Positions 9,037 to 50,867 of a stretch of DNA of 64,000 nt are shown piece after piece. Both the position numbers and the translations under genes were made by a program. Within the stretch, counting starts at the first letter, position 1. Each line of letters starts with the position of its first letter. The stretch is from Escherichia coli (lineage in GTDB: Bacteria; Pseudomonadota; Gammaproteobacteria; Enterobacterales; Enterobacteriaceae): assembly GCF_003334255.1 (NCBI RefSeq), contig NZ_QOWU01000008.1. One strand, written 5' to 3'. The notes below the pieces were generated by a model. The model was given only the letters and a program-made list of their open reading frames with translations, did no database searches and was not told the origin of the DNA.

Positions 9037-11859
9037 TTACAGCATCGGCTTAAGGAAGCGTGCCGTGTGTGATGCTTCGCACTCCGCGACGGTTTCTGGC
9101 GTACCGGAGACGAGGATCTCGCCGCCACCACTGCCGCCTTCTGGTCCCAGGTCGACAATCCAGTCAGCGGTTTTGATCACGTCGAGATTGTGCTCAATCA
9201 CCACAATGGTGTTGCCCTGATCGCGCAGTTTATGCAGTACGTCGAGCAGTTGCTGAATATCGGCGAAGTGCAGACCGGTGGTCGGCTCGTCGAGAATATA
9301 CAGCGTCTGCCCGGTGCCGCGTTTTGACAGTTCACGCGCCAGCTTCACGCGCTGGGCTTCACCGCCTGAAAGGGTGGTTGCGGACTGCCCCAGTCGAATG
9401 TACGTCAGGCCAACGTCCATCAACGTTTGCAGCTTACGCGCCAGTGCAGGTACGGCATCAAAGAACTCACGCGCCTCTTCGATGGTCATATCCAGCACTT
9501 CGTGGATGGTTTTGCCTTTGTACTTAATCTCCAGCGTTTCACGGTTATAGCGTTTACCTTTGCACTGGTCGCACGGCACGTAGATATCCGGCAGGAAGTG
9601 CATCTCCACTTTGATCACGCCATCGCCCTGACAGGCCTCGCAGCGTCCGCCACGAACGTTAAAGCTGAAACGTCCCGGCGTATAGCCGCGCGCACGGGAT
9701 TCCGGTACGCCCGCAAACAGTTCGCGCACAGGCGTAAACACGCCGGTATAGGTCGCCGGGTTAGAACGTGGAGTACGACCAATTGGGCTTTGGTCGATAT
9801 CGATCACTTTATCGAAATGCTCCAGCCCCTGAATATCGCGATACGGTGCTGGTTCGGCGATGGTCGCCCCATTCAACTGGCGTTGGGCAATCGGGAACAG
9901 TGTGTCGTTAATCAGCGTCGATTTACCGGAACCTGAAACCCCGGTGATGCAGGTAAACAGACCCACCGGCAGCGTCAGCGTCACGTCCTTCAGGTTGTTG
10001 CCGCGTGCGCCTGTCAGCTTCAGCACTTTTTCCGGATTCGCCGGAACGCGTTTCTTCGGCACTTCAATCTTGCGTTTGCCGCTCATGTACTGCCCGGTCA
10101 ACGACTCCGGCACCGCCATAATCGCTTCCAGCGGACCTTCTGCGACCACTTCACCGCCGTGAACACCTGCGCCCGGGCCAATGTCGATCACATGGTCAGC
10201 GGCGCGAATTGCGTCTTCGTCGTGCTCCACCACAATCACGGTATTACCGAGATCGCGCAGATGGATAAGCGTACCCAACAGGCGCTCGTTATCACGCTGG
10301 TGCAGGCCGATAGACGGCTCGTCCAGCACGTACATAACGCCAACCAGGCCCGCACCAATCTGGCTCGCCAGACGGATACGCTGTGCTTCACCGCCAGAAA
10401 GCGTTTCTGCCGAGCGGGAAAGCGTCAGGTAATTCAGGCCGACGTTAACGAGGAATTTCAGACGATCGCCGATCTCTTTAAGGATTTTTTCTGCAATCTT
10501 CGCCCGCTGACCTGCGAGTTTGAGATTGTTGAAGAATTCCATCGCATGACCAATGCTCATGTCGGAGATAGCAGGCAGCGGCGTATTCTCGACATACACG
10601 TGGCGCGCTTCCCGACGCAGACGCGTCCCTTCGCAGCTGGCGCACGGACGATTACTGATAAACTTGGCTAATTCTTCGCGTACCGCGCTGGATTCCGTCT
10701 CTTTATAGCGGCGCTCCATATTATGCAGCACGCCTTCGAACGGATGACGACGAATGGAGGTATCGCCACGATCGTTCATGTATTTGAATTCAATGTTTTC
10801 TTTGCCAGAACCGTACAACACCACTTTATGCACGTTCGCGCTCAGGCTGCCCCACGGCGCTTCGACGTCGAACTTATAGTGATCTGCCAGCGATTTCAGC
10901 ATCTGGAAATAATAGAAGTTGCGGCGATCCCAGCCACGGATCGCACCACCAGCCAGCGACAGTTCCGGATTCTGGATCACTCGATCAGGATCGAAATATT
11001 GCTGTACGCCAAGGCCGTCGCAGGTCGGGCAGGCCCCCGCCGGGTTGTTAAACGAAAACAGTCGCGGCTCCAGTTCACGCATACTGTAGCCGCAAATTGG
11101 GCAGGCGAAGTTGGCGGAGAACAGCAGCTCTTCCGCTTTCGGGTCGTCCATATCCGCCACTACCGCGGTACCACCGGAAAGCTCCAGCGCGGTTTCAAAT
11201 GACTCGGCAAGACGTTGGGTAAGATCGTCACGCACCTTGAAGCGATCAACCACCACTTCAATGGTATGTTTCTTTTGCAGTTCCAGTTTTGGCGGATCGG
11301 AAAGATCGCAGACTTCGCCATCAATACGAGCACGGATGTAGCCCTGGCTTGCCAGGTTCTCCAGCGTTTTGGTGTGTTCGCCTTTGCGCTCTTTAATGAT
11401 TGGCGCGAGTAGCATCAGACGCTTGCCTTCCGGCTGCGACAGCACGTTATCCACCATCTGGCTGACGGTTTGCGCCGCCAGCGGGACGTCGTGGTCCGGA
11501 CAGCGCGGCTCGCCAACGCGGGCGAATAACAAACGCAAATAGTCGTGGATTTCGGTGATTGTCCCCACCGTAGAACGCGGGTTATGAGACGTCGATTTCT
11601 GCTCAATTGAGATGGCAGGAGAAAGCCCCTCAATATGATCGACGTCCGGCTTTTCCATCAGTGACAGAAACTGCCGCGCGTAGGCGGAAAGGGATTCAAC
11701 GTAACGGCGCTGCCCTTCGGCATATAAGGTGTCGAAAGCGAGCGAGGATTTGCCAGAACCCGAAAGCCCGGTCACGACAATGAGCTTGTCGCGGGGGATA
11801 ACGAGGTTGATGTTTTTGAGATTATGGGTGCGGGCGCCCCGAACTTCGATCTTATCCAT
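9037..11859 (-). CDS. uvrA: excinuclease ABC subunit A, 940 aa
   Basis: Two ABC ATPase modules ([10 protein letters not shown] and [10 protein letters not shown] Walker A motifs) and zinc-finger cysteine clusters. Confidence 0.97.
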
Positions 11860-11942
11860 TCACCTTTCCCGGATTAAACGCTTTTTTGCCCGGTGGCATG
11901 GTGCTACCGGCGATCACAAACGGTTAATTATGACACAAATTG

Positions 11943-11962
11943 ACCTGAATGAATATACAGTA
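11943..11962. promoter_or_regulatory. LexA (SOS) box in the divergent uvrA-ssb control region
   Basis: ACCTGAATGAATATACAGTA matches CTG-N10-CAG with the AT-rich core of the LexA consensus. Confidence 0.85.
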
Positions 11963-12112
11963 TTGGAATGCATTACCCGGAGTGTTGTGTAACAATGTCT
12001 GGCCAGGTTTGTTTCCCGGAACCGAGGTCACAACATAGTAAAAGCGCTATTGGTAATGGTACAATCGCGCGTTTACACTTATTCAGAACGATTTTTTTCA
12101 GGAGACACGAAC

Positions 12113-12649
12113 ATGGCCAGCAGAGGCGTAAACAAGGTTATTCTCGTTGGTAATCTGGGTCAGGACCCGGAAGTACGCTACATGCCAAATGGTGGCGCAG
12201 TTGCCAACATTACGCTGGCTACTTCCGAATCCTGGCGTGATAAAGCGACCGGCGAGATGAAAGAACAGACTGAATGGCACCGCGTTGTGCTGTTCGGCAA
12301 ACTGGCAGAAGTGGCGAGCGAATATCTGCGTAAAGGTTCTCAGGTTTATATCGAAGGTCAGCTGCGTACCCGTAAATGGACCGATCAATCCGGTCAGGAT
12401 CGCTACACCACAGAAGTCGTGGTGAACGTTGGCGGCACCATGCAGATGCTGGGTGGTCGTCAGGGTGGTGGCGCTCCGGCAGGTGGCAATATCGGTGGTG
12501 GTCAGCCGCAGGGCGGTTGGGGTCAGCCTCAGCAGCCGCAGGGTGGCAATCAGTTCAGCGGCGGCGCGCAGTCTCGCCCGCAGCAGTCCGCTCCGGCAGC
12601 GCCGTCTAACGAGCCGCCGATGGACTTTGATGATGACATTCCGTTCTGA
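12113..12649 (+). CDS. ssb: single-stranded DNA-binding protein, 178 aa
   Basis: ORF 12050..12649 trimmed to [16 protein letters not shown]; OB fold, glycine/glutamine-rich tail and acidic C-terminus DFDDDIPF. Confidence 0.95.
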
Positions 12650-35001: not shown

Positions 35002-35051
35002 TTTGATAATACGATTGGGTAGGGAGTAACCAGTATAAAGAGTTCGAATGG

Positions 35052-35080
35052 ATAAAAAAACAGCCTCCGAAAGGAGGCTG
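35052..35080 (-). terminator. rho-independent terminator of fdhF
   Basis: CAGCCTCCgaaaGGAGGCTG hairpin with a plus-strand A-run (T-run on the minus-strand transcript). Confidence 0.7.
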
Positions 35081-49976: not shown

Positions 49977-50867
49977 TTATTTCAGCGCGCCTGGTGAGAA
50001 GAAATCAACAATTGCGCCGGTTTTTTGCATATTAATATTAGCTTGTTCAATGTTGAGCTGGGCGACAGAGACAAAAAAAGCGTCCAGCAAAGTTAGTTGT
50101 AATATTCTTGCCGAGGCATTACGACCTAATAACGGCGTTTCCGGGGCTGGTGAGCAAATAATATAATCGGCCAGTTTCGCTATCGGTGAATGGTAGCTAT
50201 GGGTTATACAAATAATCTTTGCCCCGTTCTTTTTTGCCAGTTCTACGGCCGCTTTTACATCACTGGTTCGCCCGGAATGGGTCACTACCAGCACAACATC
50301 TCCTTCCTGTAACAACGAAGCGGACATCATCATGATGTGAGCATCAGGATAGGCCTGACAGCGTACGCCAATGCGCAAGAACTTGTGCTGTACATCAGCA
50401 CAGATAGCATTTGATCCTCCGGCACCGTACAAATCCCGCTGTCTGGCCTGATAGAAAAAGCGGGCGGCACGGTGGATCTCATCAACGTTGACGATCGACT
50501 GACCTTCCATAATGGTGCGTAAAGTGATGTTAAATACCTTATTCACCACATCCTGCGGCGCTTCATCAAAAGCCAACTCGGAAGGCAATACCTGTTCTGA
50601 CTGAGAAAAATAATCTTCCAGCGCACTGCGTAAGTTACGAAAGCCGCTAAACCCCAGCAGCTTTGATACCTTAACTATCATCGCTTCAGATACCGCCAGA
50701 GCTTCTGCGACATCTTTAATTGCGGGTGCACAACTCAGGTTACCGGGTTTGAGTAACCACTCCACGATGCGGCTTTCATTTTCTGTCATTCCTTCCTGCT
50801 TCATTCGCAGGTAAGGCGCTAACCCTATACCGTTCGGAAGCGCTGAATCAAACTCTGACTGGCTCAT
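49977..50867 (-). CDS. rpiR: RpiR/AlsR transcriptional repressor, HTH plus SIS domain (296 aa)
   Basis: ORF 49977..50900 trimmed to MSQSEFDSALPNGIG...; RpiR-type HTH then sugar-isomerase (SIS) domain. Confidence 0.85.
   Translation of the reverse strand: MSQSEFDSALPNGIGLAPYLRMKQEGMTENESRIVEWLLKPGNLSCAPAIKDVAEALAVSEAMIVKVSKLLGFSGFRNLRSALEDYFSQSEQVLPSELAFDEAPQDVVNKVFNITLRTIMEGQSIVNVDEIHRAARFFYQARQRDLYGAGGSNAICADVQHKFLRIGVRCQAYPDAHIMMMSASLLQEGDVVLVVTHSGRTSDVKAAVELAKKNGAKIICITHSYHSPIAKLADYIICSPAPETPLLGRNASARILQLTLLDAFFVSVAQLNIEQANINMQKTGAIVDFFSPGALK

Follow-up and report, generated by a model that had tools for sequence, protein, structure and literature searches.

The 64-kb stretch of DNA analysed here (the window) carries the divergent genes uvrA and ssb, and the region between them is very probably the E. 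coli uvrA-ssb regulatory region, in which a single LexA operator of intermediate affinity is shared for the repression of both genes, with ssb being mostly constitutive. The shared operator is already known, having been published in 1983-85, and nothing about the site is new. The common regulatory region of E. coli K-12 (Brandsma et al. 1983, Nature 305:243, and 1985, NAR 13:5095, as cited in PMC9505508) is the same locus with the same sequence, and there is no difference of substance. Beyond the K-12 literature, we add a footprint across genera in which the box is in register with the uvrA -10 element, and we find that the distal ssb -35 element is good only in Escherichia and its close relatives. 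The uvrA-ssb SOS box is a classic case of one operator for two divergent promoters and carries little weight as a discovery; its value here is that of a positive control, namely a true regulatory site located to the exact base from sequence alone. To our knowledge, it appears in every LexA regulon compilation.

The LexA box between uvrA and ssb

The two genes are separated by a spacer of 253 bp (11860..12112), which is unremarkable in length, as the divergent gene pairs in the same window have spacers of 82 to 429 bp. The window is E. coli chromosome; a segment of 453 bp centred on the spacer is 100% identical to many E. coli chromosomes, and the spacer region has a match in all 5426 of 5426 complete E. 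coli genomes. The genes and the operator are as follows.

9037..11859, minus strand: uvrA coding sequence (excinuclease ABC subunit A), a 940-aa open reading frame, in the RefSeq annotation and with the same coordinates in E. coli
12113..12649, plus strand: ssb coding sequence (single-stranded DNA-binding protein), from open reading frame, translation and RefSeq annotation, with its ATG at 12113
11943..11962, no strand assigned: LexA operator (SOS box) ACCTGAATGAATATACAGTA, from heterology index, chance expectation and conservation, with its CTG-N10-CAG core at 11945..11960

A gammaproteobacterial SOS box is here taken to be an imperfect palindrome of 20 bp whose core is CTG-N10-CAG and whose centre is AT-rich (consensus TACTG(TA)5CAGTA). 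A consensus search with TACTGTATATATATACAGTA that allowed up to 3 mismatches gave no match, because the box has 5 mismatches, and an approach based on a weight matrix or heterology index (HI) was therefore needed. On the uvrA strand the box reads TACTGTATATTCATTCAGGT; it agrees with the perfect palindrome at 15 of 20 positions, and both triplets are intact. Its HI in the uvrA orientation is 6.93 (leave-one-out), as calculated by the Berg-von Hippel/Lewis formula with a count matrix built from 20 other E. coli LexA boxes, the uvrA-ssb site being excluded. This matrix is our own reconstruction and not the original one of Lewis et al. 1994, which weakens the calculation, but the published value was still reproduced to within 0.05: an HI of 6.98 is given by Fernandez de Henestrosa et al. 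2000, as quoted in PMC9505508, and one of 6.2 is found among the Courcelle et al. 2001 values quoted in PMC11228462.

The box is the best-scoring site of the whole window by a margin of more than 5 HI units, the next best having an HI of 12.07. With the exact score distribution at the base composition of the spacer, chance alone would give 1.5e-4 sites this good in the spacer and 0.04 over the whole 64 kb. The bare CTG-N10-CAG core has 25 matches in the window, and only the one at 11943..11962 has an AT-rich centre and consensus flanks. A functional HI cut-off of about 12.6-15 is said to go back to Lewis et al. 1994.

The original prediction placed a single LexA box at 11943..11962 in the 253-bp divergent spacer, and this proved correct to the base; the spacer contains no second LexA site, the next best non-overlapping one having an HI of about 20. 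The prediction of SOS control through one LexA operator between the two genes likewise agrees with the title of Brandsma et al. 1983 and with the text of PMC9505508. It had also been proposed that an HI above the range of functional sites should count against the box, and the value of about 6.9-7.0 lies well inside that range, as classical SOS boxes span 1.8-13 (PMC11228462, Table 1). The operator had further been called strong, which overstates it: it ranks in the middle among SOS boxes and is intermediate, in PMC9505508 it is called ‘quite heterologous’ and given a lower affinity, and with AZT the induction of uvrA is only about 4-fold and that of ssb about 1-1.5-fold.

One half of the box is consensus (CTGTA) and the other is weaker (CTGAA), with position 15 alone costing 3.2 HI units. 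Since only one half matches the consensus, the affinity of the site for LexA would be intermediate, from which appreciable basal expression of uvrA and an induction of only a few-fold would follow.

Two further LexA-like 20-mers in the window have HI values near 12-13. One, GAATGGATAAAAAAACAGCC at 35046..35065 (HI 12.07), is without CTG and lies inside yjcO; the other, TGCTGTACATCAGCACAGAT at 50386..50405 (HI 12.96), has the CTG-N10-CAG core intact and lies inside alsR. We take both to be chance matches, since about 5 sites with an HI of 12.6 or less are expected per 64 kb and both are within coding sequences. In MG1655 (locus L083), gene coordinates agree with those of the window over at least the first 15 kb, as judged by comparison of the open reading frame calls. 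When the window was compared with MG1655 base by base over 49 kb, the register was lost, which implies that one or more insertions or deletions somewhere in the window set it apart from K-12.

Predicted promoters and leaders

A simple scan for sigma-70 promoters and terminators returned nothing in 11700..12300, because the promoters are of the extended -10 type or non-canonical, and we used our own position weight matrix (PWM) scan instead. A search of Rfam at permissive thresholds found no RNA family in 11500..12500. The elements below come from the PWM scan and from an alignment (A1) of 30 Enterobacterales spacers.

11927..11935, minus strand: uvrA extended -10 element TGtCATAAT, in invariant or nearly invariant columns of A1 and in the PWM scan
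11950..11955, minus strand: weak uvrA -35-like hexamer TATTCA with a 17-bp spacer, inside the LexA box (PWM scan)
11860..11921, minus strand: predicted uvrA 5′ leader of about 61 nt, its start placed from the conserved extended -10 element
11863..11872, minus strand: uvrA ribosome-binding region CCGGGAAAGG, a Shine-Dalgarno block conserved in 30 Enterobacterales
11940..11969, plus strand: predicted distal ssb promoter TTGACC-18-TGGAAT with the LexA box in its spacer (PWM scan), -35 at 11940..11945 and -10 at 11964..11969
12057..12065, plus strand: predicted proximal ssb promoter with extended -10 element TGgTACAAT, outside the LexA box, leader of about 41 nt (PWM scan)
12050..12055 and 12074..12079, plus strand: predicted proximal ssb promoter TTGGTA-18-TACACT, outside the LexA box, leader of about 27 nt (PWM scan)
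12100..12104, plus strand: ssb Shine-Dalgarno sequence AGGAG, in the invariant block TCAGGAG of A1

The promoters are positioned from sequence, from conservation and from secondary citations; we infer their start sites, the leader lengths and the competition between them. Transcription of uvrA would start near 11920, and relative to this predicted start the LexA box spans about -42..-23. Given its 10-nt spacing from the conserved extended -10 element, the box is predicted to cover the uvrA -35 region, and PMC9505508 likewise states that it overlaps that region. The distal ssb transcript would start near 11976 and have a leader of about 137 nt, which places the box at about -33..-14 of that promoter. 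The predicted elements of the two promoters are interleaved, with the distal ssb -35 (11940..11945) sitting between the -10 and -35 elements of uvrA, and the uvrA -35 (11950..11955) between those of ssb.

A LexA dimer bound to the box would thus cover the uvrA -35 region next to the extended -10 element, and on the ssb side the same dimer would lie over the distal promoter's spacer and the final three bases of its -35 element. The two promoters would fire in opposite directions from overlapping DNA, and because they overlap, with predicted starts about 56 bp apart, one repressor could block RNA polymerase at both. Following DNA damage, RecA-stimulated self-cleavage of LexA would free both promoters. 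In this scheme, LexA repression of uvrA, LexA control of ssb at the distal promoter only, and the expression data discussed below are derived from the literature. LexA is reported to repress uvrA in vitro, a result attributed to Sancar et al. 1982. Both PMC9505508 and PMC11228462 treat the uvrA-ssb site as a LexA operator that represses uvrA.

Three ssb promoters, of which only the most distal is LexA-repressible, were described by Brandsma et al. 1985, as summarised in PMC9505508, and our PWM scan gives three candidates, matching the published number. For ssb, the RpoD genomic SELEX table in Shimada et al. 2014 (PMC3946193) likewise gives the hexamer pair TTGACC / TGGAAT of the distal candidate. 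We infer that the two proximal candidates are the published constitutive promoters, including which of them is which. Among the 30 Enterobacterales, the T, A and T of TACAAT are invariant, and A12075 and T12079 of the other proximal candidate are nearly so. As these two promoters lie outside the operator, ssb would be mostly constitutive, with an SOS contribution that is small and dependent on conditions. This placement is in keeping with an SOS induction of ssb that is weak and under dispute.

The original prediction also held that the leaders of both genes are unusually long. This claim is not supported, as it presupposes that transcription of either gene begins next to the box and nowhere else. 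The predicted uvrA leader is about 61 nt long, the proximal ssb promoters would give leaders of about 27-41 nt, and only the LexA-controlled ssb transcript would have one of about 137 nt; in E. coli, 5′ UTRs of anything between 0 and 700 nt occur, the mode being 25-35 nt (PMC3415461). In other genera the predicted uvrA leader is 37-113 nt.

The predicted uvrA leader has two minor features, both on the minus strand. At about 11888..11910 there is a 9-bp hairpin, CCGGTAGCA-CCA-TGCCACCGG, followed by a run of A-nucleotides, and related Enterobacteriaceae have a different hairpin (GTTTGT...ACAAAC) in the same place. Although this resembles covariation between genera, we rejected the hairpin as a feature, since its folding energy is no better than that of shuffled sequences (z about 0 in most species) and it is absent from distant genera. 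A 15-codon upstream open reading frame, ATGCCACCGGGCAAAAAAGCGTTTAATCCGGGAAAGGTGAATGGATAA (11856..11903), starts at 11903 and its end overlaps the start codon of uvrA. E. albertii and Citrobacter werkmanii retain both its ATG and its frame, whereas Kluyvera and more distant genera do not, and since it has no obvious Shine-Dalgarno sequence, it is probably not translated.

The operator across genera

A scan with UvrA residues 1-300, using one genome per species, returned 80 loci, and 56 of these have a divergent ssb within 1.5 kb upstream. They comprise those Enterobacterales whose upstream sequence was long enough, several Pasteurellaceae and a Tolumonas. In each of the 56 spacers there is one CTG-N10-CAG box, whose orientation is the same throughout, with HI values of 3.8-11.8. 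At 42 of the 56 loci an extended -10 motif is found at the E. coli spacing of exactly 10 nt from the box, and between the box and the ssb ATG there are 66 to 259 nt, depending on the locus.

In alignment A1 the spacer is mostly unconserved, apart from a few sharply conserved islands.

11848..11872: uvrA start and ribosome-binding region
11924..11965: TGtCATAAT (uvrA strand) together with the LexA box, as one continuous block
12056..12065: ATGgTACAAT of ssb, followed by TTTAcACT
12094..12108: ssb Shine-Dalgarno region

Within the LexA box, the invariant columns are the CTG, ATAT and CAG positions. Only Escherichia has TTGACC as the -35 element of the distal ssb promoter; close genera have CTGACC, TTAACC or similar sequences, and most other Enterobacterales have AAAACC. 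Because this element degrades to TTAACC or AAAACC in other genera, control of ssb by the LexA box may not be general.

The orthologous locus in another genus, that of Salmonella enterica, likewise has divergent uvrA and ssb genes with one common box (HI 6.99), although PMC8072944 gives different distances to the annotated start codons. In Vibrio, a LexA box is also found upstream of uvrA, but it is nearer to the consensus. At seven Vibrio loci (L060, L064, L071, L075, L078, L079 and L081) the box reads TACTGTTTTTTTATCCAGTA, lies 64-76 nt upstream of the uvrA ATG and has an HI of 3.0-5.4, as against mostly 6-10 for the shared Enterobacterales box, and no ssb was found within 1.5 kb upstream of uvrA. 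At most Pseudoalteromonas loci and at the Shewanella and Alteromonas loci, no box with an HI below 15 was found in the 400 nt upstream of uvrA. In Alphaproteobacteria, the LexA recognition motif is expected to differ. The same divergent arrangement occurs in the alphaproteobacterium Sinorhizobium meliloti, where, going by the title of Tapias and Barbe 1999 as listed in the references of PMC2248561, the uvrA-ssb divergent promoters were studied as a damage-response unit.

Since the register with the uvrA promoter is fixed, the ssb -35 element is variable, and uvrA in Vibrio keeps a box with no ssb nearby, the comparison suggests that the operator is primarily that of uvrA and that the degree to which it is shared with ssb varies by lineage. 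A box that is fixed relative to the uvrA promoter and not to ssb also fits the long-running dispute over whether ssb is SOS-inducible.

Published expression data and competing explanations

With AZT, uvrA is induced 3.9-fold with a lexA dependence of 4.4-fold, and the corresponding values for ssb are 1.5-fold and 1.0-fold (PMC11228462). Induction of ssb was not seen by radioimmunoassays or in three microarray studies, as these are cited in PMC9505508. By RT-qPCR, the same paper reports LexA-dependent induction of ssb following UV and gamma irradiation, its overexpression in a strain with constitutive SOS, and, under normal growth, ssb expression that was no different between wild-type cells and SOS-deficient ones. 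In Salmonella treated with nalidixic acid, uvrA is up 11-fold and ssb 9.6-fold, and in undamaged cells the expression of ssb does not depend on LexA (PMC8072944). These data fit an asymmetric arrangement of uvrA and ssb. The induction of ssb is inconsistent between studies, and this counts against the shared-operator explanation.

A competing proposal is that the operator functionally belongs to uvrA only, that the proximal promoters make ssb effectively constitutive, and that the apparent sharing is a by-product of gene arrangement that is negligible for SSB levels. We regard this as unlikely, but it is the most serious of the competing explanations. The AZT values for ssb speak for it, as do the fixed spacing between the box and the uvrA -10 element, compared with the 66 to 259 nt that separate the box from ssb, the poor distal ssb -35 element beyond Escherichia and close relatives, and the fact that the conserved ssb promoters are the proximal ones. 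It is harder to reconcile with the LexA-dependent induction of ssb seen by RT-qPCR after UV and gamma irradiation and its overexpression in the SOS-constitutive strain (PMC9505508), with the 9.6-fold rise of Salmonella ssb under nalidixic acid (PMC8072944), or with the position of the E. coli box within a good TTGACC-18-TGGAAT promoter.

It is far less probable that LexA is secondary and that the block conserved around 11918..11965 is mainly the target of another regulator. The candidate is ArcA, a reported anaerobic repressor of uvrA; PMC3798270 cites Ogasawara et al. 2005 for its binding at uvrA/ssb, where it is also drawn in Figure 1 of PMC9505508. A match to TGTTAATTAAATGTTA at 11918..11933 overlaps the uvrA -10 element and the predicted start, but at 11/16 it is weak, and about 0.2 such matches are expected by chance in the spacer. 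Moreover, a genome-wide ArcA ChIP study of 2013 (PMC3798270) did not recover the site, the invariant columns coincide exactly with the CTG, ATAT and CAG positions of the LexA box and with the -10 hexamer, and control by ArcA would add to that by LexA instead of replacing it. Finally, the bare CTG-N10-CAG core is common enough (25 matches in the window) to raise the idea that the match arose by chance and has no regulatory role. This idea can practically be dismissed, being already refuted by conservation and published experiments: no other match has both spacer and flanks AT-rich, the HI of the box is 6.93 as against 12 or more elsewhere in the window, the expectation in the spacer is 1.5e-4, all 56 of 56 related spacers conserve it, and decades of experimental literature concern it.

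Within the preferred explanation, that of a shared LexA operator, we tentatively put forward a history that we think possible, though we would not yet favour it. The operator would be ancestral to uvrA and locked at 10 nt from the uvrA -10 element across Enterobacterales; LexA control of ssb would have been gained later, in Escherichia and close relatives only, when the flanks of the box became a usable -35 element (TTGACC or TTAACC, compared with AAAACC elsewhere); and the conserved CTGAA half-site would reflect tuned affinity and not decay. If ssb control was indeed a later gain, it could help to explain why reports differ in the size of the SOS induction of ssb.
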